Positions 16,201 through 62,041 of a DNA stretch of 64,000 bases are shown piece by piece. Below the pieces are notes generated by a model. The model saw nothing but the letters and a program-made list of their open reading frames with translations. It was not told where the DNA came from and ran no database searches. How positions within the stretch are numbered: the stretch's first letter is position 1; every line of letters begins with the position of its first letter. The stretch is from positions 62,001 through 126,000 of the forward strand of contig KZ537959.1 in the NCBI GenBank assembly GCA_000934665.2. The letters are read 5' to 3'. The position numbers and the translations under genes were made by a program. This stretch comes from Catajapyx aquilonaris. Its lineage: Eukaryota.

Positions 16201-17206
16201 GCCTGGGAGGTCCCGCAGGACCTTGCTCCGGATTTTATTGACAAATTATGCATCGTCAGTGGTGATTATTAGCTATTTTGAGGGCACCATCCTCAATGAC
16301 TGTGGTGGTACAGGGGTCAGTGTTGGCATGACCAAACCCAAACGTGACATGGGAGTATTATCCCCTACGGCATTATGCTGAAGATTCGGTGACACATAAC
16401 ATCTCCCCACACTCCCTCCACCAGAAAACTAGTGAAACTGGACTCATCCTTTTTCCACTTACCCGTTTAATAGACTTTCACTTTCGATAGTCATTCGTTC
16501 CAACAACATTCCAGACAAAAATTCGATGAGTACAGGTCTTCCCGAGCTTCTTCGTATACACATAGAGGTACTCGTTTATTGTGGTTGAAACCAGCTGGTA
16601 CACTACCTCAAATGCTCTGAAGGATATATCACTCTTTAAAATCAGAAATTTTGCAATTCTTGAACATGTTATCGAAGTCGCTGACTCTGTTTTATTGAGC
16701 GCTGTTTTATTTTCATTGTTTTAATAGGTATATTTATGATGAGGGTAGACCACCATGTTTACAGAATTGCATTAGGTGCACTAATTTTGGCGTTTAGTGA
16801 AATCACCCATTTAATACCGTTAACCGGTATAGGCCATCGAGTGCTGGAATCACCCATGTCCTGTTTATCATTTAAAAACAAATCAATATGTTAATCATAC
16901 ACTCTGTTACCTTTCCCATTCTTTTTGAGAATGGTAATGCTATGAATCATATCATACATTTTACTAAAATGCAGAAATTGCGAGAAGCGTGACATAATGA
17001 ACCATTATGATTTTTAGAAACAACCAATTATGTAAGGCAGCGAGAAAAATGATGGTTTTTAAAAATCGGACTGTTCATTGTTGTTGATAGGTGGTTCTTT
17101 GCATCTACTCTAGCAACTCTCCAGCAGTTGCACTTGGCATTGCCCATAACCAGGAAAGACGAATGTGCGGCCGTAAATTTGACTTTGTGTCCTCTTTTGC
17201 TCTCAG

Positions 17207-17358
17207 GACTCGGAAGGAGACACTCCTTTGCACGACGCCATTTCGAAGAAGAGGGATGACATGCTGACCCTGCTGCTGGACCACAACGCTGACATTACTC
17301 TTACCAACAACAACGGGTTCAACGCTCTGCACCACGCTGCTCTTCGTGGAAATCCTAG
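17207..17358 (+). CDS. mib1: Internal coding exon of E3 ubiquitin ligase Mind bomb 1 (ankyrin-repeat region), 152 nt, phase 0 start and phase 2 end
   Basis: Translates to [50 protein letters not shown](S). From memory this is nearly identical to vertebrate MIB1 [51 protein letters not shown]. Canonical acceptor tttgtgtcctcttttgctctcAG (AG 17205-17206) and donor AG|GTAAGA (GT 17359-17360). The ORF track shows only its antisense shadow, 17105..17335. Confidence 0.96.
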
Positions 17359-20300
17359 GTAAGATTATGTTTTTGGTATTAAAAGCCGGAATCGTCTCGT
17401 AAAAGTTCGGTAAAATAACAACAGTGTATACAGTACTTCACAAGAAAAAAAGAGTTTAGCACAGTATACACCGTATAACGTGATAAAGTCTTGCTGATAA
17501 TCATGTTCAAATCAATCAAATCACGCCTGGAGCTACGCTCGATTCCTCTCGCTTTATTCAAGCCGAAGCCGACCATCAATGAGCCCTGATTAGCTCCGCA
17601 TAACTCGGCAGTTTTCGACAAAAAAAAAAAAACTTAGCGTTTCCAATATGCCCCCNCCCCCCCCCCCCCCCCCACGTCGCGTCGTTCCGTCGCGAAAAGG
17701 TAAGCGGATTAGAAGAACTCCATGTGAACGCGTGAAATTTTGGCCTCGCAGCGATTGACATGCGGAATGCACACTTGCTGCTTTCACCGGACTCGATTTG
17801 CATCTAAATAAACTGCCTTGGGGAAGTAGGGAAGGTGGTGGGAGAGGAGGAGAAGGGTGGTCTAATTACCCATGTTGCGAATGAAGGGGAGGGGAAAAAA
17901 AAGGTCTTGCTTGAACGGATTTGTCGTTCTCTCCTTCTCTCGCCATTTGGCGGCGGAAAAATAGGTAGGTGCAGTTTGGGGGTTGGCAGATCACGCCGTT
18001 CGCTCCGGATTATTGCGCGGCCAGGCTTTGAATCCGCCAAGGGGACTCGAGTAAAGGGGGAGAATTAGCCATCTTTTCCAAGTTTTCACTGCAATTTATG
18101 AGCCTTCCCGCGGGATAATAGTTTGGGAGAAAAGCACCCCCTTTTCGCCCCTGCCTTTTTTTTCTGGCTTGTTCCCCAAGCTGCCTCAGCCTAATGGCTC
18201 AGTCTAGTGCACAACTTTTCCTTTTTTTAGAAACATTCACCAAGAAGTATCGCCACTGGACTTTATTTTAATCGATTTAATCAATCATCGGGGCGGGCGA
18301 TTGAATTTGAGGCTATTCCCCGGTGCAGCGCCGTTTACTGAAATGGCACCCGGATACACAGTGGACTCGGAAAATAAATCGTAGCCGGAGCTAATCCTAT
18401 GGGATTTCATTCCGCGTAAAGTTTCGATTTATGGCAATCAAACGTGCAAGTTACGGCTGACGTGTAAAACCGACCGTTGCGGAAAACACCTCTTCTGATT
18501 GACTGTCGCCGGTGCTGATGGAGTGGTTTCCAAAACAGGTTGTTAGTGGCACAAAGTACTGCATATATACAGGGCACACTATTTCAGGCTTGACGTTGGC
18601 GGGGGTTGGCATTCCGGTGAAGAGGTGGCGTGGACGGTAATGGGACTGTCCGCGCCATCTCTTCTGCTTGACCCGGACAATTAGTCCATGGGTCAGGATT
18701 AATTGGTGAAGAATATACTATACAAGGGGACTGGAGAACTGCACCCAATTTACATGTCAAGAAAACTTTCCGCATGTTACGAGTAACCCTATTATATTAA
18801 AACACCGCTCCGTAGCTTCAAGGTGCAGCTTTAAAAAATGCTAATGTTGTAAGCAAAGAATGTTCGCTTAATTTTACGGGTCCTGGTCACATCATTTGAC
18901 GGTATAACCAATGTTGTTGGCCCGAGTCGTCCCTGGTATTTTCTCATACGGGGAAAAGTGTCTGGAGTTTGGTGATCTCATAACTTTATAAGTATCAAGG
19001 CGGCGACAGCAGCCTTCCTCTTTTTCATTTACCCCTTGGCGGAAGAATGTATTGCCGGACCCTGTTTTCAGCCGACATGCCTGCGACAAGCGAAGCAAAA
19101 ATGCAATTAGTGCAAATTGGCAGTAAAGTTGCGAGACTAGTGGGCCATTTGCAAGGGGTGGGGGGCATGAAGGAGGGGGGGGGGGTACTATGACCTCCTT
19201 TGGCATCCCCTATTCCCTCTGCCGGTGCCCCTCCCCCACTTTTGTCTGTTCTGAAAAGGAGGGATTATCCTCCCCAACGTGCTTTTTAAGCAGGTTTCCT
19301 AATGACATCGCTTTTAATCGGATTGGGCCTTAATTGGAAGAGAATTAGGCAAGTGCCGCGGGTCAATTGCCGGGGCTAGTTGTCTTAAGGGCCGTGAGGG
19401 GTAAAGAGGTGGGGGATGGGGGAGTGCAGATTAGCAAGACTAGGGCTCGTCTGAAGAGATGCTGTATACTCCCCGCTGGTAGGAGGTTCGCGGAAGAAAG
19501 CTGCTGGCTAAGCATTTACCGGGTGGGCCGATGATGTATGGAGCAAGTTGCGAGGCGGGCGCAAGTTTTCCGCACGAAAAGTAAAGTTGAAAATCAGCAC
19601 AAAAATTAATCCGGCTGAAGGGGGAGTTGGGGTTGGGGTGTGGGGGGGAGAGAGAAAAAGAGGCTTTGAAACCTCGGGGAGGCTAATAAAGTGCTATGGG
19701 ACTGAGGGAAGGGGGTGAGGTACTGGGGGATTCCTTATCTGGCCGCGCTAAGGAATCCGCGGAATTAGACGTGATCCATGCAATTGAGGCCAACAGGCTG
19801 CTATCGTGTGTCGCATGCGAAGACTGCTCGATGGATCCAACGGGTAATTAGCCTGCGAAATGAAGCGCCTTTTTTTCCCCTCTCGTTTCCGGCTCTCTCT
19901 TTTCTTCCTAGTTCCTTTTTTTTTCTCTCTTTTCTTTTTCCAACGGCCCAAGTTTGGGAATGAGACTCGGGAGGGATCGCACTTTTCTTCTTGTTCTCCT
20001 TTCCTCGTTCCTTTGGAGGTCTTTTCTCTCTCCTTGGGTCGATAAAGACGGGTTGGAGGGTGGCTGCTGATCGGCACCTCGTACTATCCGCCATCTCCTT
20101 TTAGCAATTTGGAGATAATCGACAGGTCTAAGTCACTTCCAGGTCCAGAGAAACGGGTGTAGCCTCTCAATGCAACACAGGGCTTTCATCGGGGAGGTTT
20201 ATACAGTTGGTAATGCGCGGGGAAAATCCATTTACGTATCAATCTTTGGGAGTCAGGTGAGGCACAGTTTCTGTAACACTGAAAATTGAATTGAGAATTT

Positions 20301-23300
20301 AATGTTGCACAGAAAGCAAAATAAAAGCGTGGCGGGCTGTTTTCCTTTTTATAGATTTTCAACCGGTGGAAGAACTGGAAGCAAACAATGTAGCCGATTC
20401 GGCACAAATTGATTTCTTGGGTCAAAATTGTAACGTAGATATAATGAGCCATTGCTAAATCTGAGACTTTTCCATTTTGCAAGTACTAATTATATTGAAG
20501 TGGATGAAAGATTGTTAGAGCAGTGGGATATTACCCTGCTTATTATACTGACTAGATTCGATGTAAATCTGAGCCGACACTCTGAGAATCATGGGCATAT
20601 GATTAATTCATATACAATATTCATATACAATGCTTTACTTCAGCATACGCCATGAGTAATATGACATCAACATTACTATACACCTCGATTCACTAGTCTA
20701 CTCAGGCTGACATTTCGCATGCAACGGGATTAGAGAGAAAGTAAATATTAATAGACCTATTAAAGTAATTATAGTTCCTCCGCCCACCTATCTGCATTGT
20801 AAAAATAGCCGATTTCAAAAGCAGAGTGGCATTTCCAGGAGGATTCTCAGTTGAGCAGACACAGAAGCAAACGACGATGCACTGTTATTTGAATGAAGGA
20901 TGTCCGTGGAGTTTTACTTGAGTGTTGATTTTTTTTGGAACATTCTTGAGAAACCCTTGCAGATAATTGGGAAGTACTGGTGAAGGAGGCCGTTTGGCTT
21001 CTCCCATTAGGACGTAGTAGTCAATCAGGTGACCTGAGTAGATCTGTAACTATTCTACTCCCACTTCCCCCAATTCAGGTTATGAAACAATGTAAACAGG
21101 CTGAGGTGCCTACACCAGACGCAACGTAGGCCTACACTTCTCAATGCTAGGTAACGGAAATGAAAAAAAATGGGGAAATGGGATGAAATGCAGCTGATTT
21201 GGCAATGTCCACTTCAAATTTTTCTGATTAATATGACCTGTTGCAATGGGAACTCGGTTACAGCTGCTTAGTCTTCTAGTTATTTGAGGCTAATGAGCTT
21301 ATGGGACTTACAAGTTAGTGACATAAGCAAATTATTATATACCTCATGTTTTGTATTTAGGAGACACACTTGAACAGTGTAAGGAAATAGTAGCCTATAG
21401 TATTTAATACAGTAGCATATGTCGCTTTGTTCATTTTGCATGGCATGGCTTCAAGGTATATAGAAAGCATAAGATTTGTGTCCACTTGCTATTGCCAATT
21501 GTGTATGTGGACAAGGACAATGGACTTTGTAAGAAATCAGTGAGAAAAGATCGCTTGTTGAATCCGTTGTAAAAAAGAAATCGCTTTGCAATCTTTCTGC
21601 AGCAGTGCGGAAATCAATGGCTATCACTTGAGTAACACAGGTGCCGTGAATGGTTTTGTTGAACTGGGTGTGATTTCAAGTGCTCATGGGCCTCTTCTGC
21701 GGAATATGTGGGCTGATTGAGCATTTCTTGCCAGGCTTTTTGGGCGGGTTTAGAGCCCAAGGCAGATTGGCGGGCCAGCAACAACACGGCTCCTCTGTTT
21801 TGTAATGGCTGTCGGCAGCGCTACTCAAATGTTTATGTGGACGCCTCTGTAGTTGTCGGCTTGGCCTCCAGATAATTCCCCGCTTTTAAGCGAATTGCGT
21901 CCCTTCACCACTTTGTTGCCTTTATGATTTTTCCCCCCAACACCGATTCATTTACCTTTCTCCCGATTTATGACTGTCCAAAGCGACGCGTGCAATGCTA
22001 AAGGACTGATGTGGGACGGGGAAAAAATTAAATATATACACCTAAAAAACGGGGCACCGGCAAGCCCACATGTTCACACAGAGGGATACATTTAAAAAGT
22101 TGCGACTGTGAAATACTTTGATGGCGCTTGGCGTGCTGATGGGAAAAGCCCGGTTTTTACATTGATTTTCTCCCCGGAAAAAGAAGAGGAAAAAACAGTT
22201 GGGCTGGGCAGAGTGTGACACACGTCGCGTCAACCTGCCCCATAAAGACTTGCATCGGGGCCCAACTTTTCAGGCCGTTAGGTCATTTCACTTTGCCAGG
22301 AGTAAACTTTGTGATATGATGGAGAGAGGGACAAAGGGAAGGGAATCCATGCGGATGCCAATTCTTGCCGGGGATGTATGAAACATTAAACCCGCATCAT
22401 AACCAACAACAGTATTATGGTTGAAGGAGAAAGAAGAATGGAGTTTTATGGAAGCGGGAAATGACTATAAGTGTTGGCCTCTCTATTACGGGGGAGGGAT
22501 ATACTGTATACCGGGTGGGCACATGCCCATTCAAAAGAGCGCACCTGTGCTTTGTGTTATGGGAACTCATTTTGTTCTGCAGCAGGTTCTAAAATTAGAT
22601 TTGATGGAACATTTTAAAAACTTCCCATTCTTCTGCCGCCATACCCGCTGTTAAGAGAACGTGTTTGTGGCGCATAGCCCACAGCGATTTCTCCAAGTGA
22701 CGGTAACTAATCTCTATGAACACAAGCATGAGACGCCGCGCCTCCAGGAATGTTAGCAATCGCCCAAGTGAAGCAATCAATTAATGAAGTCAGTGATCAC
22801 TACGACCGTCGTGGAATAGCTAATTTAGAGTGCAAACTTTAACATTATGTCAAGGGAGGAGGAGGAGGAGGAGAACTGTGTAGTTGGCATATATATGATC
22901 CTTGCATGTGAACGCGTTGAAGTACTGTATGTGCTGTTAATTTCGAGTGTCGTCATCACCTTTTTTTTAGTATTGCAGTTTTTGGTACTCCTCTTGGGCC
23001 TAAGTTGACGTCGCTCTTTGATTATAGTTGCAATGTCCCACTGATTTTTGCCATAGTAGAGCTTGTTGATTTAGAATTTCATAGGCAATGCGGATATGAT
23101 GGAGTATAGGCCCTGCCGGGTTGTCTCGCATCAGGTAAATTTGAATGGATGCTTCAATGTGGGCGAACATGCCCAGGAAGTGTGTGATTACCTCCAGTCT
23201 TAGAATGTGGAAAATATTTCCAGCCTGGTCCAAGCAGGGATCCCTTGGGGACAGCCTTTGTTTGGGAAGTCGGTTGGCTCAGTCTTTCGCGACTGATTCG

Positions 23301-23495: not shown

Positions 23496-23512
23496 NNNNN
23501 NNNNNNNNNNNN
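23496..23512. other. Assembly gap (17 N) in a poly-C context
   Basis: N run flanked by C tracts. Single Ns at 17656 and 62654 are also in C/G homopolymers, so those tract lengths are unreliable. Confidence 0.95.
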
Positions 23513-27888: not shown

Positions 27889-28781
27889 CAAGGGCCGTAC
27901 CAAAATGGTTTACAATTATTTTTTTTTTTTTTGCCGAAAATACAGGGACCATGGAGGTCGGCAAATAGGTACACACTATCGACAGAACCTACCCGGAGCC
28001 GAATGCAGAGGAGTGAGGCACCCCAGGAATCACTGTTTGGAGGTGCGAGGCACCTACTATACCAGACATCTGCTCAGTCAGCAACTATCAACAATGTCCT
28101 TAAAATGGCGTCAGCGAAGGGATTTTTTCATGGATCTTGCTTTGAGTGCTTCCACACCCACCGTACTCCCCTGGCGTGGCCTCAAGTGACTTTTTTTTGT
28201 TAGTTTGTTAGTTTGTTAGTTTGCAATACCCCGTGATAGGGCCAGGGGCCCTCTTGGGGGCGTGGGGAAGTTCCCAAGGGAGGGCGCTCTTAAGTAGTCA
28301 TTTCTGACCATCTTAAATATACCAGACCTTTTCTCTTGGCCCTTGGCAGAGAATGTAGTGCAATTCTGCCCGGACATTTCGAGTGAAAAGCAGAAAAAGA
28401 CCCGCCCAAGCGAAGGTGACTGCCTGACGCGGAAGGGGTTTGATCCCCGGACCTTCCGCTTGGCTGGGCAGTAGAATAGCCACTAGACCACCATGTTCCC
28501 CGCCTCCAGTGACTTTCATATGTTCGAATATATTTAAAAAGTCCCTTCGCCGATGCCATTTTGAGGACATTGTTGACTGTGAAGAGTTGTCCGGGAGTCG
28601 GTGCGCCGCACACCAAAAAGTGGTTCCTGGAGGGCCTGGATAGGTTGACCACTGCCAATGCCGGTGCATTCTGCTCCAGGAGGATTTTATTTACAGTATA
28701 ATGTGTGCCTATTTTTCGACGTGCATGGGCGTTGTGTCTGTGGCAAAAAACAAATTGTAAACCATTTTGGTTCCGCCCTCG
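27889..28781. mobile_element. Tc1/mariner-type non-autonomous element (MITE) with long imperfect inverted arms, interrupted by a SINE
   Basis: Left end TA|caagggccgtaccaaaatggtttacaatt and right end aattgtaaaccattttggttccgccctcg|TA. Inverted similarity runs about 240 bp inward (tcaacaatgtccttaaaatggcgtcagcgaaggga versus tcccttcgccgatgccattttgaggacattgttga). Confidence 0.85.
28194..28507 (-). mobile_element. tRNA-derived SINE (family A) nested in the MITE
   Basis: Minus-strand head with A box TGGTCTAGTGG and B-box-like GGGATCAAACCCC; tail (AAACTAAC)3 plus A run; TSD agtgacttt at 28185-28193 and 28508-28516. Confidence 0.85.
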
Positions 28782-31700
28782 TACTTAGTGAAGTAAAAAA
28801 ATACCGCAATTTTTCTGTACTCATGGTGTGTTCCTTACTAGAAATGCGTTGTTCTGATGGGCTTGTGAGGCGAGTGATTTTTTTGCGCCCATATTTTGCA
28901 GGTCAGTCACATGGGACCAGAGTTACAGCGTCATTTCCCCCCTGCGTGGAAGCATTAGGTGCTCATGTTTTCTGGCTGAACGAATTGTCAGTAGTTATGA
29001 TGCCCACGATTTGCTGGCGACAGTGAAGTGCGGGATGCCACGTTCGGGTTAATTGAGACTTTTCTGTCAAGCCTGGCATGGGACCGGTTGGAGATTTATG
29101 AGCGTATCATCGGATGCTTTCGAGATAACGTATTTCGAAATCAAGCTCTATGACATACAGTGATAGCAGCGCACTGAAATTTATGACTGGGCATGATTTT
29201 GTCAGCTTAGAATTTCACAGACATAAAGAAATGTACCTCAGGCAATGGTGAAATATTTGTATCGTAATAGAGGAGAACTGTGAATAATTGCAATTATATA
29301 CATACTGTAGTATGGGAATAAAAATTTGAGGAAACTTTTCCTTTTGTGACACTATTGTAACAAGCCTGTAATTAGTCTAAGGTGTCGTTGTCACTGTATT
29401 TGAACACGCACGAGATATATCTTTGTTAATCCTGTTGCGGAGACTAAAATTCGCATTCTATTTTGACCCGTATGTGAGTGCAAGTCTCCTCTAAAGCATC
29501 GCTTTAGAGAATTGCTTTTTCAAGGGAAGGATTTTCAATTCCTTTATCCGGCTATTTTGGATCAATTCTGCGAGATAGACCGTTATTCCACTGATGGCCT
29601 TTCTCTACATTTCCAGTCTCCTGAAATAAGTTCTTCATCCTGACTGTTCAGAGCTACCCTTTCGCCTCTGTTGAGCGCCAGGTTACGTGCCTGGCAGGGG
29701 CAAGCCACTTTCCTCCAACCCCACTCACAGTTGTTGTTGGCCTAACTTTGTACTTGCCCCGACTCTTTTTGAGTCGACGCGACGCTGCGATGAGATGTTA
29801 GGGATCCTGTGATTTAAAGGAATGATGTAACGCCTTTGTTGGGGTGCGACATGTTCAGCACTGTCGCTATGTTACAAAAGGGGTGTATGCAGTCGGAAGG
29901 GTGGACTTGGGTGACGAGACACGGCGGGTGAAAGCCAATACAAAGGAAAGCAAGTGAAGCACAGTGGAGAAGAGTTGAAACTTGGTGCTGGTGCGATTCC
30001 GACGGGATGAATGAATGGATTCATGCAGCAGCAGCAGCATCGGGGTGTGCTCGCCGTTTGAAACACAGCCAAGAGTGGAGAAGGCCTAAAGCAAGTCATC
30101 CAGCCAGACATCCAGCTAGCTAGCCAGCCAGCCAACAAGCAAGCAAGCCTCCTGGCTTCATGTCTAATGTATGGCCTGCCGCCGCCTTGTTCTTCTTCTT
30201 CCTGAAGTCTCCGGGACCAGCGTTGTAGTGGAGATCCGGAGCAGAGCCGGATCTCCTTTGTGCATCTGGTAATGCAGCACCGCCCGCCGCCACTCTTCCT
30301 ATGCTCAATGGGCTTAATTAGGCGAAGAATGCCGGGCTCTTAGGCTAATGAAAGGCTTGAGGAGCGTATTGAATGGCCCCGCTGCTACTTTTCCGCCACG
30401 GTAAACACAACTCTTAAAACAATCCCCGTAATTTTCTTGCTTGAGCCATGCTCTCTATTGGATTATTTTAGACGTCCCGACATTTCTTTATCTGGCTGGG
30501 GCCCTTTTCTTTTCCTTCCTCTTTTTTTCCGCCTGCAAGGGAATGGGGGCGGCGGGGTGAAGTGGTGGCAGTGGCGGATGCAGATTGTGTTGGCGGGTAG
30601 GCATGATGCCGTCCCGCTGCCAAATGCAGCCCAATCCGATTTGCTCCCAATCATTCGATTCCCCGCAAGAGTACTCTCGCTCCACTTGTATTCGAAGGAG
30701 GAGCAACTGGAAAGGGCGGGGGTCGCTCGGAGCGGCCTCGGAGGTTCAACACATGTTTGCTGCACTGGGAGACGGATGTGGCATATAATCTCGTTTCTCA
30801 AGACTGCCGTAAGGCAGGAACGAAAGTGGGCAAGAGAGATAATGTAGACATGCGGCTAATTCGGGATGGGGTGGAAGGGGGTAAGCGATGTGACAAGCCA
30901 GATCGCGTGGTTAGCGGCCAAGCACGCAACAGCATCTCAGTGTTTGCCTGTCCGCTAGCCGCTGCATGCTGTCCGAGCCCTGCATAGTCTTATCCGAAGC
31001 AGTTGCCTTGAACACAGCCTTGCACAAGATGAGCCAATTAAAGAGGCCGAGGCCGCGCCAGGACGGTAATAGCCGTGTGCGGTTACAGCCACCATTACTC
31101 GTCGAGAAATGCGAATTCATGTATTGTGGTTGTCTGTTTTGCGGTGCGTATAGGTCACCCTATAGTGGACGCATGCACTCGTCTGAGCAGGCCACAGCCA
31201 GGGAGAATTTCACAAACCTGCCTTGGAGCAGTGCTGGCTTCTAGCTCCGCCGCCAGTGTGGATGCCTAACCAGACCCCAACAATGTCCGATGTAGCCCCG
31301 GCACTTCCCAGTACGTGCCCAGATTGGAGGATATAAAAATGTGGAAGGGGCCAGCCATGCGAGCACTGTTTATATGCGGACGAGTAGCATTCTTTGAAGA
31401 GCGCAATTTGCATGGAAGGAAAGTGGCACTGTGCTGGGGGAGGGGGTGGAAAGCTCACCCAGATGGACGAGTGCACGGAAACATAAATGGGAGCCACCCA
31501 GCTGGAAAATCAGCCGACTGAATCGCAAGGGTGATCCACAATACCTGTCACTTTTTGGCCTCAAAAGCTGCTGAGTGTCCCATTAAATGAAGAAACGCCC
31601 CCGGAGGCTCAAGTCGGCGCTAAGTAGAGGAATGAGCCAGGGCTTACCGCGAACTCGGCTTGTGTGGATGAGTTTGAAGGAGGCTCGAGACGCGCTGAAT

Positions 31701-34700: not shown

Positions 34701-37700
34701 ACTGGTTATAGCACCAACCCATCTAGAGTTTGACAGCCTATGAGGCACCAGCATGTGAGGTAACGTGGGTTTTATGCTAAGGGTGTAGGTGCACGGGAGC
34801 GGGTGTGTCATACTGTTTTTGCGGGCGTTTGGAGTGGCGGTTTATGATGCAGCCATAAGGGGCCGCTACGATCGAGTCCCGGAAGTGACTTGCGGACTAA
34901 TAATGCCCGCGTTATCGTTCAAACCGCAGATTGCATGAACAGTAAAACTGCGCAGCCTGCTGATGCTCCCTTGGAATGTGATTTTTTATATTTTCATGCA
35001 TTTTTTTTTTGGCGTAGTTGCCTTGCTTCCCTCATGTCCTGTGAGTAAGAATGGCAGGTGTAGTCGAAGCAAGGAATTCCACGACTCTACGCCCCGAGTT
35101 GCAAGGGTTAAAACCTGACCACCTGGACGGATTATCACGTTTTGTGTGTGTGTGAAGCCGGAGTCGCGGAGAACGACAAAATGAATGATTACTGGCACTG
35201 CAGCAAGTAACTTGCGACAGCCGTCCACTTGGCAGCCGCTCGAAAAATCCGGCTGCCGCATGCAGTCTTTCAAGACGAGGTCCCGTGGAATAATCCGACT
35301 CTTGGAGCAAAGAGAGGCGCCGGCCTTCCCCTTTTCCTTGCTGCTCCCTAGAGATTGGCCCAAGAGGAATTTTTCCTTATTTTGAGCCCACACGCAAGCG
35401 ACCTCCCTCTCGGCAGCACCAAAATGAATATAAAGTTTAGTTTGTGCGACTGGGAAATGGGAGCGGGGAATTCGCTCGTCAATAAAATACCGGTGGCTGC
35501 GAGTGAATACGCGGATTTCCAGGGGGTTCGGGATCCCCGACAGATCGGTCCCGCACCGAATTATTTAAGACCAGCCTCCGACCAGAGGGACGTGGAGTTG
35601 AGGCGCCCATATTATCTCAACCGTCGCCTAACCATGTGTACCAATTCTTCTGGCTCACTCTTTAAGCGCGGGAGTGTAGTCCCATGTCTGGAAATGAGCT
35701 TTGAATAAGCTGCTTAGAAACCTGAGATTAGGTTGAGCTGGGATTATCATGATTATTTCACATTTTTGGAGCCGAAACTTGCTGCGGTCAAAGGAACGAG
35801 GTTGAAGCTGGGGTGGTGGCATGTTTATTTGGGATACTGCAAATAGCATGGAGAGGTATTACTGACTGCTGAAAAAAGAATGGTTCTGAATGGAGCGCAC
35901 AAAGCGGATTGTTGTGCAAATAATTCAGGAGTTGTCTTCAGCATCAAGGGGATGTACCCATTGCGATTTTGAGGACTGGTTGTATATAGTCAATTTACTG
36001 GATGGGGTAATTGCCTCGAATGAAAGGGTATGAGGGGTGTGTTTAGGTACTCCATATTATAAAAAGTTTATATAGGATAAATTATTCAGAAATTAATCAC
36101 GGTTTATCAATATAAAGCGCCTATGCAAATTGCAGCCGTATTCATGAGTTATGTCTGTACTAACTTGACATCCGGTAACAGTTAAAATGCATCATGGCAC
36201 TTTGCATGTATCCATTGAATCATTCACTCTAACGCGACGAAGCTTCATGAAACCGACTGTGATGTATGCTAAAATAAAGGGAGAAGCCAACCGAGTCGAC
36301 ACAGGAAATGTGCAGGCCTGTATTAAATCCCCTTTTGCCCCTGCGGTTGATAGATGCCGCTTGACAAGAGGAGCTCATTGGTTGCATAACCGGCAGGATG
36401 AAAATATTTCCCCCAATTAATGTGGCAAGTTTGCGTTATCTGCAATTTTCAGCCATGTGCAAAAGATTCATAACACTTGATTGGTTTTCCAGAGCGAGTG
36501 GCGGTGAGGCGTGGGTTCTAAACGGTTATTTGTGAGGGGTATTTTTTTCCCCCTCGGTTCCACGAAGGATGGTGGGAGCAGAAATGAGTATAGGGTAGAA
36601 TGGCGCTGATGCAGGCGATTAAATCTGACAACAAATTGCCGGCTTTATTGCCTGCGCATTAAGCCGGGAAATTTGCATTGATTGACACCTGTGACGAAGG
36701 CGGACGAGCCGTCTAATGAGGCCTAACAGTAACAATCGAGCCGCCTTTATCTCATTAAAAGTGGATCTGCAAGCTCATCCGCAACGCTGTCAGCAAAGTG
36801 CGCGGAATGGAAATGAAATTCACAAAATAAACGCCGGGCCCAATGAACGCCGAATCGGGTTAATTTTGTGCGCATAAACGCTCGCCGCCGCGTTCATTCA
36901 TGGATTTATGGGCGGGTTTTATACCGGCCGGCCTAGATTACTACAGGTTGCGCCCAAAAGTTGCCCGGGGGAGGCTCCCTCGCATGCTGATGATGCGCTG
37001 TACTGTACAGGGCTGCACACCAGGTATGGGGCCAACTCTGACCCTTGGGCTTCGCTTACACCACCCGCGGCAGCACGGGAACCAAGCCAAGCACAACTTT
37101 GACATGCCGAAAATTTTGGCCTGCAAAATGTACCGTCCGTTTTGTATTGGCGAGAGGTGTGGGAATCGCGTCGGAATATTATTTCTGCATGCCCTCTGGA
37201 AAATTAACGCCGGTCCAAATGGCTACCCTGGGCATTTCCGCTGCTGCTGGTGTTACTCGGGGCCGTTTTGAGATTGATGATGATGAATGGGTGCGTCCCA
37301 GTGGAGTTGAGATTGCTGCCACATCAACCTTCGTCCGGCCCTTATGCCAACTAATGGAAAAGGTGTTTTGGTGGGCCTGGCCACAATGCGTCTGATCGCC
37401 GTGTTTTCACTCGTTCGCTTTTCCAGCCCGATACTAAACACATTCACTGTTCGACCGAAACGGCCCATCGTAACGCGGAGGTACTACGATATGGGTGATT
37501 TCACAAATCAAGTACCACGCCTCTGATCGGAGATACAACTGGTGTGGAGTCATGAAGCTTCGTTACTTCATTGTTTGTTTTCAACGGGTTTGTGTTTCTG
37601 ACCTCTTCAGGGTTCGTTGTTACTTTGAAGTCTTGAATTATTTCCACTTATGGGGTCATTAAGACTTGGATTTTTTTGAACGACATTGACGTGCGTTTCA

Positions 37701-46700: not shown

Positions 46701-48445
46701 ACCTCGCATAAAGTCGTGCAGCAGCTGCCTCGCCTAGCGCAGGACATAAATCCCGGGGGACTTGTTATTGTGGCCGTGCTTTGGTGGCCAAGTTTGAATG
46801 CAGGCCGCACGGCAGGCTGGTTGGATGGCTGCACAGACCGGAGCCATGTAGGCAGGCAAGTCCTCCTGCTGATCCGGGGCTGAAATATGAGCGGGACCTG
46901 GCGCACAAGCCGAGCCAGCCCCGCCGTGTAATTTGGTGGCCTGGCCATTAACCCCGCACACGAAGAGAAGCAGAGCGCCACGGGAGGTGCCATCATTGCA
47001 ACTCCGGGAGACCCAACCTTACTCACCTGCTGACGACCGCATGTGCTCTTGCGGTTCCAAGGCTTTTCTTTAGGCCCGGGACAACATACTCGCAGTGGAC
47101 GGGCGGGGTGTCCGGCTACTGCGGAATGCATAAATAGTGGGTCGGCAAATTGGCATCGATCCCTGGTGCCCGGCTGGCTTAATTGCCCCAGCACTTGGGG
47201 CAGGAAGGCGTGGTCAGTCCACTCGCATTAATTGCTGGCTTGATTCCAGCCGGGGCTCTAATAGCCCGGCAGGCCCAGCTCCTTGCGAAATTCGGAGGAG
47301 GAAGCAGGGGTGACCTATGCCTGCGCACTGCCTCCCATCTTTCATTCAGACTTCCTTCCTTCCTCGCCTCGGGACTAATAGTTGGGATTGCTAATGGCTT
47401 CTGTGCCCCAGGAATTTGGGACTGTGAGTCCGGCCCACCCACCGGCTAGCATTTGTTTGCTCCAGATTTGTACCGTGCACAAGTCCCGCGGGGATCGATC
47501 AGAACGTGGCAGGCAGGAGGGGGGCATTGATTCACAATGGCTGGGTGACGACTAGATTCATCCATCTGTACAGTTTTAGGCGTCAAAATGGATATGTGCA
47601 TGCGGTTTGTCAACACCCGTCGCGTTGCTGGGATAACCTGGTTTGACGTTTTAGGATGAAATCTTCATGCTGCGTGAGTGATGGCAGAAAAGTGATGTTG
47701 CATTTTACGAGGGTTAAGAAGAGTTTCGGCGAACCTACTGGTCGCATAATACGTATACACTATTATTTTCAGGGAGTGTTACAGGGTTCTTACCAAGTTG
47801 TGGATTGCTTAGCCCAGCAACCATTTTAAGGAAGATCATCCCGTTGCATTGAATTGCATGGAAAGAAGATATTGTCTGCCTTTAGCTTGGATGCAGGGGG
47901 TATAAACTATCCTGATCTGTACATGGGGCTGGAATGCGACAGGATCGAGTAACCCATGGCCTTTACCTCGCCCGATTATTATTGGAGATGTCAACTTAAG
48001 CAGTGTTCCACCTTCCACCATGTACTGTACACCAAGGACGTTGTCATACTACTAATTTGTCGGTTAGGCCTGAACTCTGTCGCTCTTTGATGTGAGATGT
48101 GACCCACTTAAAATGTATTACTGCAGGCTGCACACAAAAATTATTTACAAATTGTAAAACATATTGGCCATGTAATAATATTGTGCTTTCAAAGACAAGT
48201 TTGCAAACCCTTGAAGTCAATTTTGCGTGAAAGCACTTCACAGAACAGTGAGAGGAAGTAGGCCTAAACGCTTATTCTTAAGTCAGTGATTAAATACGGG
48301 GGAAATTGCCCGGCACGTACGATAATGGAGCTGGTGAACATCAACGGTAACGGTGGTGCTTTGTCGGAAAATCTAGATTAAAGCTGCTAATAACAATATT
48401 AAAGTGAAGGACATGGCAGTCACTTCTTCAGAGTGCATGACTATA

Positions 48446-48870
48446 CAGGGTGTATCTGAACTCAGTGCCCCGACGTATATGACTGCCTTCCTAGCCACCA
48501 GAGGATCGATTTAAGTATAGGAATCATTATGTTTGGCCGCCGCATTACGGAGATACACTCTTTAGCGATTTTTGCCTAATCGCTCCTTTTGACTTTTAAA
48601 TAGAATTTTCTGGTGTAACTAGCCAAAGAGGCCTTACCACCTGTGGGCAACAAACCAGCAAAGTCCCGCCCCCAGACCTTCCAGAGCCTTCTGACTGGGG
48701 GAGGGTTCGATGGGTGGCCTAACCGACAGGATATTTTTGTACTACATGTTTGCGGCCAATTATCTCCGTAATGCGGCGGCCAAACATAATGATTCCTATA
48801 CTTAAATCGATCCTCTGGTGGCTAGGAAGGCAGTCATATACGTCGGGGCACTGAGTTCAGATACACCCTG
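48446..48870. mobile_element. Young Tc1/mariner-type MITE, 425 bp, with perfect 110-bp TIRs
   Basis: TA|CAGGGTGTATCTG...CAGATACACCCTG|TA. Segment 48446-48555 is the exact reverse complement of 48761-48870 (checked base by base). No coding capacity. Confidence 0.95.
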
Positions 48871-48958
48871 TATATCAGCGACACTGTATTTTGTGGTAGA
48901 CATTGTGCATACGTGTAAAGATAAACTGTAATGATCAGAACCAGGAACGCAAAGTATT

Positions 48959-53472: not shown

Positions 53473-53637
53473 ACAACAACAACAACAACAACAACAACAA
53501 CATCACGACATTTCCCTATGAGGGGTAGTCAGCGATGAAGGGAGACGCAAGCTAACCCAACATATGAACTAATAAAACTCATGAGAATAAACCTAAAAAA
53601 CAACCTGTCCCACCCCTCACCCCTGCCCACCTCAGAC
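53473..53637 (-). mobile_element. Short (GTT)n-tailed retroposon-like element, copy 1
   Basis: Reverse complement of 60787-60950; 63 nt next to the tail are identical; tail appears as (CAA)n on the + strand. Confidence 0.8.
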
Positions 53638-53663: not shown

Positions 53664-53665
<2 letters not shown>

Positions 53666-53711
<46 letters not shown>

Positions 53712-53712
53712 T
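53666..53712. repeat. (TATT)n microsatellite, preceded by tandem acatacgtat x2 (53641-53660)
   Basis: Direct read. Confidence 0.9.
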
Positions 53713-54087
53713 GTCATTGTCAGTTCATTCGTACGTACATGCATTTACATACCGTGCACATCGAATTACTCACGTTAGTGACGGCATGTAATATGTATCG
53801 ATTCCCAACTCCTGCTAGTTGTTATTCAAGCTATATGCATTGTGTCGGGTTTCTCACTAATAAACCCATCACGAGCAGTGCCTTTCAATCGGATATTTTT
53901 CTGCTGGCTTTTCAGTGGAGAACTGTATGCGTCAAGTGGAATAGGAATTTATTGCCAGCAAAAAAAACAAAAAAAGCCGCATTATGCAGAGGGCTGCCGC
54001 AGCGATGGGTCATACACTGTTGAAGTGCGAAACATTACTCACATTCTTTTTTAATTGTATGATGCTCACAGTTTGCTCTTCATTCCA

Positions 54088-54152
54088 CTAATTCATGTAC
54101 TTTTGTCCTTACAGGTGAGTGATCCACTGTTGCGCGTACGTGAAAGGTAGGC
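54088..54152 (+). promoter_or_regulatory. Candidate recursive splice site (AG|GT ratchet point) with a cryptic 32-nt RS-exon
   Basis: CTAAT branch motif at 54088-54092, AG-free pyrimidine-rich tract ttcatgtacttttgtcctta, CAG ending at 54114, then consensus donor GTGAGT at 54115-54120. A second donor AAG|GTAGGC lies at 54146/54147. Same strand as mib1. Confidence 0.65.
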
Positions 54153-56007
54153 TAATACCAGCACGTATTTTTTTTAAATACGTAGCAGCTAAATGTGCTA
54201 GCCCCCTGCTGTTCAGGGCTTGTTGGTGGTACGGGGCGCGGTTTCGAAATGGCGGTTAGAATTTTTTGAGTCGGCGCCACCGCAATTCACTTGGAGGAAC
54301 CGGTGGCTGCGTCACAGGCAGCGAGGGGCGAGGGAGGGACGGAGTTTAGGTGGTGTGTGGAGGGGCAGGGAGAGGGCGAGGGAGGGAGGGAGGGGGGATA
54401 ATTAGGCCAGCGTTTGATGAAGTAGCGCTGCGGTCACAATTTCATTAGGTTGTATTGGGATGCGGTGGGGGCGCGTGGCCTGGCGTCTAATTGCGCCTGA
54501 AATACCGCCAGAGTCAGGCACAGAATAAGGGCAGGGCGAGGCTGAGGCCGCCGGACTGATGGATCATTGTTGCATCGACCACTAATAATTCTTGTAGGAC
54601 CACCTGCATGGATGCTCGCGGCAGGCTATAATGTCTAGGCCCGGCATGGATCACTTTATGAGCTGATTTTCAAGCTGGGGGTCAGCCGGACGGGGATTGC
54701 CCTCTGGCGCGCGAGAAATTCCGGAATTGCTGATGTTTGTCCTGGGCCTGGCTATCACTGGAGTGGGAGTTGGACAACAAGATTTTTATCTATGTTAACA
54801 AACTGATGACTTGAGAGTCATGAATACGATCGGATCGTGTGAACAAAACTTTGACATTAAGCTCAATTGCGTAATGAACACTCACTTGCATCATTTTAAC
54901 GTTGTGATGTGGACGTGCCTGAAAAGATGGGAGTGCACTTGGCCATTACACATCACAGATATAGATACAGGCCAAACTGGCCATCCCATTTCGTTTATTT
55001 TCACACCATTTGCCAATAATAGCCCCGGCTGCTAATTGGCATGGCCACAGCAGCCTTCATCTCCGATTCCAATGAACCGGGCGAGCCATCTAGCCGCACT
55101 TGCTACACACGCCTATTAACATTTCACGCGTTTGTATGCAGGTTAAAAATGGTGCGATGTTTTCACACGCCAAAAAAAAGTGGTGCCCAGGCCATATCAG
55201 AAGGATCGCATTTTCCGCAATAACAAATGGCATTTCATTATCAGCAGGCACTAGCTTGTGATCAATTGACCGTTCCCCAATTACCAACTGCCCGCGCGAT
55301 TTATGATATGGTCTCCCATGCACACGGTTTCGCAACAATGCCTGCCTGCTGGGGACGCACCTGAACCGCAAACGCTGGGCGCCAGGGGACTTGGCTGGTG
55401 ACTTATGCCCGATGTTTATGGCCCAGAAGATTGTCGCGCGGATGGATGTTGGCCCCCGACGCGTGAGTTAGAGCGTGTGTGAGGGTGTCGTGCGCAAAAT
55501 AATCTTGGTACCAAATGCGGAGGGAATCATCGGCGTGGGAGCCATTTCATTAACCCCAACCGAAACTGTCAATTAGCAGAGCGGGAAATATGGGAAGGAT
55601 AGTTGCAGTAATCAACACTTGATTCGATTTAGCCTGGAAGCAATTAAGCCAGTTGGAGTCCTTGTGTTGGCGGCGGGTAATGTTAGCGCTCCCTCCTCAT
55701 CCCGTCACCTCCCCGCCGGCTCCCTCGGAAGCCAGCAGGTACTTACAAGTGCGTTACTTGTGTAATGCCTTGCTGGAGCACTGCGCAGGGCTAAGGAATC
55801 CGGGGCATAAGCCCGTGGGCCCGGCCGTAAATGCGGTTCCGGATCCGGGCTTGAGTGTCAGACGATTGGGCCTGGGAAATGATAGGGACGGAGCAGCAAT
55901 GGGAGGGATGGGTGGGCTAATGGAGAATTGGATGCTGCCTGTACATCGACCGCGACTTTATCCCATTTCATTACGTTTTATGGCGTCATGTGGCCAATTG
56001 TAGCAAG

Positions 56008-56010
<3 letters not shown>

Positions 56011-56080
<70 letters not shown>
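56011..56080. repeat. (AG)35 microsatellite
   Basis: Direct read. Confidence 0.97.
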
Positions 56081-58623: not shown

Positions 58624-59620
58624 GGCCGGAATCGTGGTGTCTCCCAGATGTATGGGCCCGCAAGTGACGTCACGCCTGTAAACATGGCGGCCGGTAAAGG
58701 GGCCGTAAATTTCAAGGAGAAGTCCATCGTGGTGAACTCGCGTATCGGCTCTTTAATCGGCCGGACTCAACCCCCAGATATCACTTGCAAAGCCTGGTAT
58801 CCGTGACGCAATGGGCTCTAACAGCCAATCCCGGAACAGGCTTCTCGTGGGGGTTGGGTGTGGGGGGTGTGTAGATGGGGGCAAGGGGTGGGGGTTTCTC
58901 TGTAAGGTTGGGGGGTTGAGTGGCAATCATCGGCGAAGGGCCCTAGGATAATCATGAGCAGCGGGCAGTTGCGATTGTTGCACCACTACTTTTGAAAATC
59001 CATCATGTTGCATAAGGTGATAGGCAGTAATTGTTTTCCATGAGGTCTTTAGGTGCGCAAATCCTTCCCGACTATACAATGAGCATCCGAACTGGCCCTC
59101 GGGCTGCCCCTGGGTGCACACCACACCATTGCATTGCATTCGGTTGGGATGTGATGATTAATCCGAGATTACAGAAGTGAGAACGCACATTCAAAGTGGC
59201 CCCGGGCCGCCCCGGGGCCGCCCCTAGCCACGGTCCGCCCACAGTCACGGTCCGTCCCCGTCATCACTCCACACAATTTCATTTCATTTGGTTGGTGAGG
59301 CGATGAAAAATCCGATCTGACGAAGTCACATCCAAACGGGCCGCCCCGGGGCCGCCCCAAGCCTCAGGCCTCCCCCGGGCACTCTTCCCCGCAACCTGAA
59401 GCAAACCCTGCCCCACCAAAACTCCCTGGGGGCCTGGAAAAGCCCAGGGCCAACACTCCCGTAAGTCCTATGGAATCTCGAAATGTCCCGTGGATTTGCA
59501 GGATGATTTCAATCGCGCGCCTCCCGTAACTTTTCACCACGGTGGTGGCCGTCGTCCGTATGGGAGTGACGTCACAATTTATGCCCCTGTAGACTTACGC
59601 GAGCCACCACGATTCCGGCC
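58624..59620. mobile_element. PIF/Harbinger-type non-autonomous element, 997 bp
   Basis: TTA|GGCCGGAATCGTGGTG...CACCACGATTCCGGCC|TTA: 16-bp perfect TIR and 3-bp TTA TSD. Subterminal GTGACGTCAC at both ends (58664, 59566). Internal direct repeat cgggccgccccggggccgcccc at about 59203 and 59337. Confidence 0.88.
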
Positions 59621-60786: not shown

Positions 60787-60919
60787 GTCTGAGGTGGGCA
60801 GGGTGGGGGGTGAGACGGTTGTTTTTAGGTTTATTTTCACGAGCTTTAATTATTAGTGCATATGTTGGGTTAGCTTGCGTCTCCCTTCATCGCTGACTAC
60901 CCCTCATAGGGAAATGTCG

Positions 60920-60950
<31 letters not shown>
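60787..60950 (+). mobile_element. Short (GTT)n-tailed retroposon-like element, copy 2
   Basis: gtctgaggtgggcaggg...ctacccctcatagggaaatgtcgt followed by (GTT)10 and (GAT)6; inverted copy at 53473-53637. Confidence 0.8.
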
Positions 60951-62041
60951 GATGATGATGATGATGATTCTTTAAAAAGAAAGTTTGCTGGGCGAGCTGT
61001 TTATGAAATTGGAAATTTAATTAACCCTTCACCTTCCCAATATTTTGATAATATTTTGTGGTTAATTTTAGGCAAAATAGAAAACCTGGATGATATTCCT
61101 CAGAGAAACCAAGTTTTAGTGAATACTATCAATATCATCATATAGGAGAGGAGGTGTTACTGAACGACTAGCAGTTTGCCATCTCTGTCTCTCATGGTCC
61201 GGGTAGTTTCAGGAATTACACCAAGGCGATGATCCCGGATAGTTTTATCTCGAATTACTTCCCTCCTGAGTGGTTAAATTTCCCTCAAGCACAGCCCATT
61301 GCTTTTTTGAGAGCTGCAGCAAATCACAGTTATCGTAGGAAACTGCTTTTTCCCCATCTCAAGTGGCCGGATAATACAGCAAAATTCCCGAGATGATTGA
61401 GCAAATGGAGTGAATTACGTGCCTGCACGTAGGAATGGGAGTTTCAATTTTATAATTAGAGAACCCAGCGGGTTTTATGCATACAGCAGATATGTCCATG
61501 TTCAATTGGCTAGATTTGATGACCTTGGTTACATAATCTTTCTTTTTAGGGCCCTAATTGTCACAAGGATGCAGTATGTTCTTCTGCAACATGAACTGTA
61601 TAACGTACTTAGATAATGGAAGCATTTTGACGTAGGTAAATAAAAATACCACCGCTAATGAAAAATAACCTGCCGTAATGCGTTACAAGCGCCACATTTA
61701 TTCCTGATTTGCAGTTGATTGATCAGTTTGATAGTGGCAAGGAAAATTATGCACTATGAATTTGGCAGGTGGAATCACCCTCAGCACTACCTTGGGATAT
61801 GTGATATGCAGTTTTCACAAAAGACTGCCATTTGCCGTGACACCTGCCATTTACAAATGCGCCGACTGCCCGTAGTCGTTCCTGGTGTGACTGACAACGA
61901 TGATTGGATGCAGTGTACGCTGTCATGCATTTATTTCCTTTCGACTTTGCCGTACAGTAATATGTTTGATGCCCCCATTTACAAACGTGTTATGTGTGTA
62001 TCTATTTATGGAACTCCATTCCATATTCGAAATTTCTTATA

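Follow-up and report, generated by a model that had tools for sequence, protein, structure and literature searches.

The window, by which we mean the whole stretch of DNA analyzed here (64,000 nt, 46.6% G+C, interrupted by three short N runs, namely single Ns at 17656 and 62654 and a run of 17 Ns at 23496-23512), contains a single exon of mib1 (mind bomb 1), located at 17207-17358 on the + strand. This exon of 152 nt, identified by protein identity, encodes a segment of ankyrin repeats and ends in phase 2 (...CCT AG|); its end at 17358 reads ...GGAAATCCTAG and is followed by GTAAGA (17359-17364), a donor which in the form TAG|GTAAGA agrees with the consensus at 7/9 positions. Of 648 candidate proteins, 628 matched the translation of the exon, ending in ...HHAALRGNP, at E<=0.001, and the named matches, among those listed, are mostly MIB1 / mind bomb. 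Identity of the translation is 96-100% in nearly all named arthropods (ticks, scorpion, spiders, Daphnia and many insects), 92% in sea urchin and acorn worm and 86% in fishes, by which the organism is arthropod-like. When 10 MIB1 proteins were compared with the window by tblastn, the exon was the sole match at E<=1e-3, and no + strand match resembling the next mib1 exon was present in the window even at E<=50. The intron downstream of the exon starts at 17359 and exceeds 46,642 nt, a lower bound because it runs past the end of the window. A weak collinear similarity to the MIB1 segment spanning the junction between this exon and the next one is located at 37056-37196 (+), but with 30-34% identity and E values of 3.6-25 it is at the level of chance; it was rejected as a mib1 pseudogene fragment, and a processed fragment is improbable at that place. 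In one tick MIB1 model (P0001, 917 aa) the ankyrin segment is duplicated, with residues 579-722 and 773-917 both matching 17204-17359 of the window, and its C-terminus ...GNPR falls exactly at the exon donor, as expected from intron read-through (AGG TAA) or from an assembly duplication.

The same intron can be followed in other animals. A protein-guided scan of metagenome contigs gave 50 loci, 28 of them mib1-like, and in 23 of these 28 an AG|GT is present at the same codon position (phase 2). Two loci, L001 and L002, are spliced transcripts in which the exon continues straight into SAMRVLLSKLPRPW. There is no close relative among the 28 mib1-like loci, since the best nucleotide identity of the exon between metagenome loci and window is 85%, and the final 25 nt of the exon had no exact match in the metagenome contigs. 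Donors of the GTCAG form are natural mib1 donors in several invertebrate loci (L012-L019, L024). The next exon is situated ~0.4-0.85 kb downstream in 7 invertebrate loci and was not found within 6.7-10 kb in 3 others (L004, L007 and L013); the length of the homologous intron in mib1-like loci is thus ~0.4 kb to >10 kb, in comparison with >46.6 kb in the window. Because the boundary is shared while the intron measures ~0.4-0.85 kb in 7 loci, these alignments point to an ancient intron position and to a derived character of the great length seen in the window. It also follows from the short intron in 7 other invertebrate loci that any recursive splice site in the intron of the window would be lineage-specific and not ancient. 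The short intron in relatives neither supports nor excludes the presence of such a site; what it removes is the deep conservation typical of fly sites. In 10 partial introns of distant relatives (0.55-10 kb downstream) we found 3 AGGTRAG strings, none with a pyrimidine tract, and no sequence resembling the region of the candidate site described below.

Recursive splicing, in which a very long intron is removed in steps, is well documented in Drosophila and to a limited extent in vertebrates. A candidate for a site of this kind is found on the + strand of the mib1 intron, where the sequence reads ...ccaCTAATtcatgtacttttgtccTTacAG|GTGAGTgatccac. An earlier note on this DNA had placed it 36.8 kb into a long mib1 intron, and the distance from the exon donor to the junction is indeed 36,756 nt (54114-17358); the strand and the gene it had assigned also hold, in view of the 96-100% identity of the + strand exon to arthropod MIB1. 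The core AG|GT is at 54113-54116, with the junction between 54114 and 54115, so that the AG (54113-54114) of an acceptor end TTACAG directly abuts a donor GTGAGT (54115-54120). The note had described a pyrimidine tract and CAG fused to this donor, and we count 15/20 pyrimidines in the 20 nt upstream of CAG, including TT at -5/-6 (54109-54110); the tract is weaker than that of the real acceptor of the mib1 exon (17/20). The CTAAT motif it had noticed about 23 nt upstream, which resembles a branch point, is at 54088-54092, its A at 54091 being at -24 from the junction and 23 nt before the G of AG. The stretch of about 41 nt without AG is exactly 41 nt long (54072-54112), is preceded by the nearest AG at 54070-54071, and holds both the branch motif and the pyrimidine tract. 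In place, as CAG|GTGAGT, the donor agrees with the consensus at 9/9 positions. It had been proposed that joining 17358 to the junction at 54114 regenerates AG|GTGAGT, and on paper this is what results: once joined to the exon the donor would read TAG|GTGAGT and agree at 8/9 positions, versus 7/9 for the exon's own donor. The note also knew of no such description for mib1, and a connection of recursive splicing with mib1 / mind bomb was likewise not found in the papers searched. No coding frame leads into the junction, as all three upstream frames meet a stop within 31 codons of it, and the predicted RNA fold of 54060-54200 (z = -1.0) has no special structure.

How often such a site would arise by chance was estimated in several ways. 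In the window we counted 220 AGGT on the + strand and 180 on the - strand. AGGTRAGT was seen 3 times in 128 kb (both strands), with a pyrimidine tract in front of just one of the copies, that at 54114. Pyrimidine fraction is 0.75 in this copy versus 0.50 and 0.40 in the other two, and the AG-free zone is 41 nt versus 16 and 1. Three Markov models were fitted to the intron, and 30 Mb of sequence was simulated with each. In these simulations the expected number of YAG|GTRAGT with >=15/20 pyrimidines was 0.006-0.023 per 46.6 kb, decreasing to 0.003-0.012 when an AG-free zone of >=30 nt was added and to <=0.002 when TT at -5/-6 was added too. The window itself contains 72 + strand pseudo-acceptors (YAG with >=15/20 pyrimidines), and under successive criteria this number falls to 40 (AG-free zone >=30 nt), to 7 and, with all criteria, to 4; with a GTRAGT frequency of 0.00028 per nt in the window, the expected sites from these real pseudo-acceptors are ~0.020, 0.011, 0.002 and 0.001 per 64 kb, respectively. 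Taken together, chance expectation in the intron stretch is ~0.001-0.02, with a further factor of 0.15 for the cryptic donor downstream (see below), but the thresholds were set after seeing the site and the true figure is therefore probably few-fold higher. The candidate site is rarer than chance predicts for the host intron stretch.

One explanation is that the site is a chance motif in a long, fast-evolving intron, i.e. a decoy without meaningful use. Although the expectation of only ~0.001-0.02 in the host intron stretch speaks against it, strong pseudo-acceptors are common in the window (72, then 40, then 4 on the + strand), the site was picked post hoc from a scan of many windows, and, by extrapolation, hundreds of Mb of intron would yield tens to hundreds of such juxtapositions genome-wide. 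The extra features of the site, namely TT, a branch motif in the range of real sites and a weaker donor 32 nt downstream (p ~0.15), agree with those of real sites and played no part in its first being noticed; on the other side, the intron is short in other invertebrates, so that there is no ancient constraint, and its first 36.8 kb are without companion sites. A 9/9 donor beside a competent acceptor on the transcribed strand would be hard for the spliceosome to ignore completely, while human and lungfish data, in the parts of those reports consulted, show that use does not follow from the motif, or from the length of the intron, by itself. On balance we consider a chance motif a serious explanation, somewhat less than evenly probable.

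The candidate at 54114 is the sole site of such strength on either strand of the window, and a motif scan of both strands found no second strong site within the first 36.8 kb of the intron. Under relaxed criteria two further, weak candidates appear on the + strand, at 23134 and at 28901, and the - strand contributes one. The acceptor|donor juxtaposition at 28894-28907 (+), 11.5 kb into the host intron, is weaker and reads ...atattttgcag|GTCAGT; this site at 28901 possesses TT at -5/-6 and 15/20 pyrimidines, but position +3 of its donor is a C, which is atypical, and it lacks a CTRAY branch motif.

It is also conceivable that the motif belongs to a fragment of a mobile element with splice-like signals, or that it marks where an exon of an unannotated nested transcript begins or ends. 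A repeated element is situated 480-640 nt upstream of the site (53474-53637), which is the nearest repeat and has an inverted copy, 165 nt long and 92% identical, at 60787-60951; the two copies enclose the site region, 0.5 kb upstream and 6.7 kb downstream of it. A G+C-rich block at 54201-54600, with 64% and then 54% G+C and a CpG observed/expected ratio of ~0.9, begins ~90 nt past the putative ratchet point, in surroundings that otherwise have 34-42% G+C. The repeat and the 64% G+C block are what could be brought forward for an element or a nested transcript. The region of the site occurs just once in the window, but this test is weak, as internal repeats account for only 2.0% of the window's length. 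None of the 146 open frames of >=85 aa in the window reached a Pfam cut-off (the matches below the cut-offs are of low complexity), searches of the window for Rfam families and for tRNAs gave 0 matches each, and the frames upstream of the junction all stop within 31 codons of it, as mentioned, all of which argues against this explanation, and we regard it as very improbable. No homologue was retrieved for a repeat-like frame on the - strand at 28293-28784. Further small repeat pairs are present at 48442-48555 / 48761-48874 and at 59117-59248 / 59265-59382, and perfect microsatellites near the site are (ACA)10 at 53473-53502, (TTAT)12 at 53665-53712 and (AG)35 at 56011-56080.

Downstream of the junction there is an additional feature that the earlier note had not described, a donor-like site AAG|GTAGGC at 54147-54152 (7/9), weaker than the donor of the putative ratchet point. 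Together with the junction it delimits a putative cryptic recursive exon at 54115-54146, which is 32 nt long and thus not a multiple of three. A donor of at least this quality is present within +20..+120 of 14.8% of random + strand intron positions, and because of this chance rate the donor at 54147 gives mild support for a ratchet point. The junction of the mib1 exon with 54115 reads AG|G TGA, i.e. Arg and then a stop, and since the 32-nt exon breaks the frame and brings in a stop at once, it would have to be skipped.

The same arrangement could mean that the acceptor is used non-recursively, as a rare cryptic or poison cassette exon (54115-54146 or longer) or as an alternative transcript end, which would yield a truncated MIB1 ending in ...GNPR or nonsense-mediated decay of the message. 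The Arg followed by TGA and the presence of a predicted usable donor next, at 54147, are compatible with a poison exon, but an exon of 32 nt is short for exon definition. A terminal exon is disfavored by the lack of AATAAA or ATTAAA within 1.6 kb downstream of the junction. Both flies and mammals are known to have expressed recursive exons as well as poison exons, and the cryptic-exon donor is usually weaker than the ratchet-point donor, which in flies favors skipping (both from the consulted part of Joseph et al. 2021); with the ratchet-point donor at 8/9 versus 7/9 for the downstream one, the candidate would be expected to behave in the same way. The ...GNPR end of P0001 was considered as a hint of exon inclusion, but we dismissed it because a transcript reading on into the intron would end in the same way; the readings with Arg and a stop in many mib1-like relatives are explained by read-through equally well, so that neither supports exon inclusion. 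We therefore hold non-recursive use of the acceptor to be unlikely.

The candidate at 54114 agrees with fly ratchet points in all sequence-level features that could be tested, and it is well-formed and statistically uncommon, a good but unproven candidate. As for the reading of the earlier note that it is a ratchet point, every testable feature is in accordance with it, while the stepwise removal of the intron itself is something we infer. According to this reading the acceptor at 54114 would be recognized during transcription of the long intron through the branch motif near 54091, the pyrimidine tract and TTACAG, and exon definition across the 32-nt cryptic exon, as far as the GTAGGC donor at 54147, would aid this recognition. 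The exon donor at 17358|17359 would be spliced to 54115, by which the first 36.76 kb would be lost as a lariat and ...CCTAG would be joined to GTGAGT, creating a new donor stronger than the original one. The regenerated donor would then out-compete the donor of the cryptic exon and be spliced to the next acceptor, beyond the window, and the cryptic exon would thereby be removed without leaving a trace in mRNA. Use of the cryptic donor would, by contrast, leave a 32-nt insert with a stop codon (AG|G TGA) directly after the junction.

How probable this is depends on what is assumed about the genome. In a fly-like regime, where real strong sites in introns >40 kb far outnumber chance ones, the site would very probably be real, whereas in a human- or lungfish-like regime, where real and chance strong sites are similarly rare, the odds would be well below even. 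Either regime may apply to a large-genome arthropod; in large genomes the motif alone predicts use poorly, according to the human and lungfish data in the parts consulted. Weighing all of this, we give just short of an even chance that the site at 54114 is a Drosophila-type ratchet point, used for recursive splicing and specific to its lineage. A more extended proposal, that the intron, <1 kb in other invertebrates, grew beyond 46 kb in a non-drosophilid arthropod with a large genome and that a Drosophila-type ratchet point with its own 32-nt cryptic exon then newly originated in it, is put forward tentatively, as rather less than evenly probable. If it is true, recursive sites can be recruited during intron expansion even in a broadly expressed gene of the Notch pathway, and the locus would provide a dated example of the birth of a recursive site; whether intron expansion recruits recursive sites is debated, judging from the consulted parts of the lungfish preprint and of the human survey by Bass & Salzberg. 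A validated site would be a clean case of recent origin, as the intron is short in other invertebrates, and would extend the fly-type mechanism, cryptic exon included, to large arthropod genomes. At present it is a single motif-level candidate and changes no view yet.

The ratchet points of flies are described by Duff et al. (preprint) as splice sites juxtaposed around AG|GT, strongly and typically deeply conserved and backed by junction reads, saw-tooth coverage and lariats. In that study TT at -5/-6 was present in 196/197 fly ratchet points versus 44% of ordinary fly introns, branch points were located at -36 to -21, and host introns of 11-133 kb were divided into segments of 2.6-63.6 kb (mean 18 kb). 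Like the Drosophila zero-nucleotide ratchet points of Ubx, kuz, osp, fz and luna, the mib1 candidate has an acceptor and a donor fused at AG|GT on the sense strand of a very long intron, with TT at -5/-6, a branch motif ~20-35 nt upstream and a donor that is predicted to be regenerated after the first splice. The A of its CTAAT, as far as a motif can tell, is at -24 and inside the fly branch-point range (-36 to -21), and a host intron of >46.6 kb is very long by the measure of fly ratchet points (11-133 kb). Most fly introns >40 kb carry recursive sites, the number of which rises with intron length, and the sites are often near intron midpoints and divide the introns into pieces of typically 9-15 kb (Pai et al. 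2018, in the part consulted); the first segment of the mib1 intron, 36,756 nt, is inside the fly range of 2.6-63.6 kb and above this typical length. Among the 560 AGGT strings of the S1 table of Pai et al. 2018, as far as that table was consulted, 'TTACAGGT' is present 42 times and 'CAGGTGAGT' 48 times, and one site carries TTTACAGGTGAGT. The core TTACAG|GTGAGT of the candidate is identical to fly sites listed there, and by these string counts it would be a common fly variant. Unlike Drosophila ratchet points, the candidate is a single site after a first segment of 36.8 kb with no companion sites in it, it cannot be ancient, and it is a motif-level prediction outside Drosophila, in a gene absent from the fly examples compared; its pyrimidine tract is also less pure than that of T-rich fly sites.

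The putative cryptic exon is comparable with the cryptic recursive exons of Joseph et al. 2018, as cited in the consulted part of Joseph et al. 2021, in being short and out of frame and in having a weaker donor. The typical fly cryptic exon at a ratchet point is ~50 nt long, out of frame and poorly conserved according to the same part of Joseph et al. 2021, in comparison with 32 nt in the candidate. As in the vertebrate recursive exons of Sibley et al. 2015 (again through the consulted part of Joseph et al. 2021), competition between donors is predicted to decide the outcome. Outside Drosophila, the only other arthropod case that we found in the literature consulted for this question is locust NPF1, whose 230-kb intron holds a recursive site predicted from a motif (EMBO Rep 2022, in the part consulted); a pull-down of the region with U2AF65 was reported there. 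In mib1, too, the prediction comes from a motif, the intron is greatly expanded and the host is a large-genome arthropod other than Drosophila; the difference is that the locust site has the support of the U2AF65 pull-down, though not of junction reads in the part consulted, while the evidence in mib1 is that of the DNA itself. Two large genomes give the other side of the comparison, the lungfish, with giant introns without ubiquitous recursive splicing (preprint, in the part consulted), and human, where 3,022 of 1,674,568 AGGT loci passing a predictor had read support in the consulted part of the Bass & Salzberg preprint. The mib1 candidate resembles the human pseudo-splice sites or decoys, most of them without read support, in being an AG|GT in a long intron, but unlike the human AGGT loci which pass that lax predictor it is far stronger and possesses extra features of the fly type.
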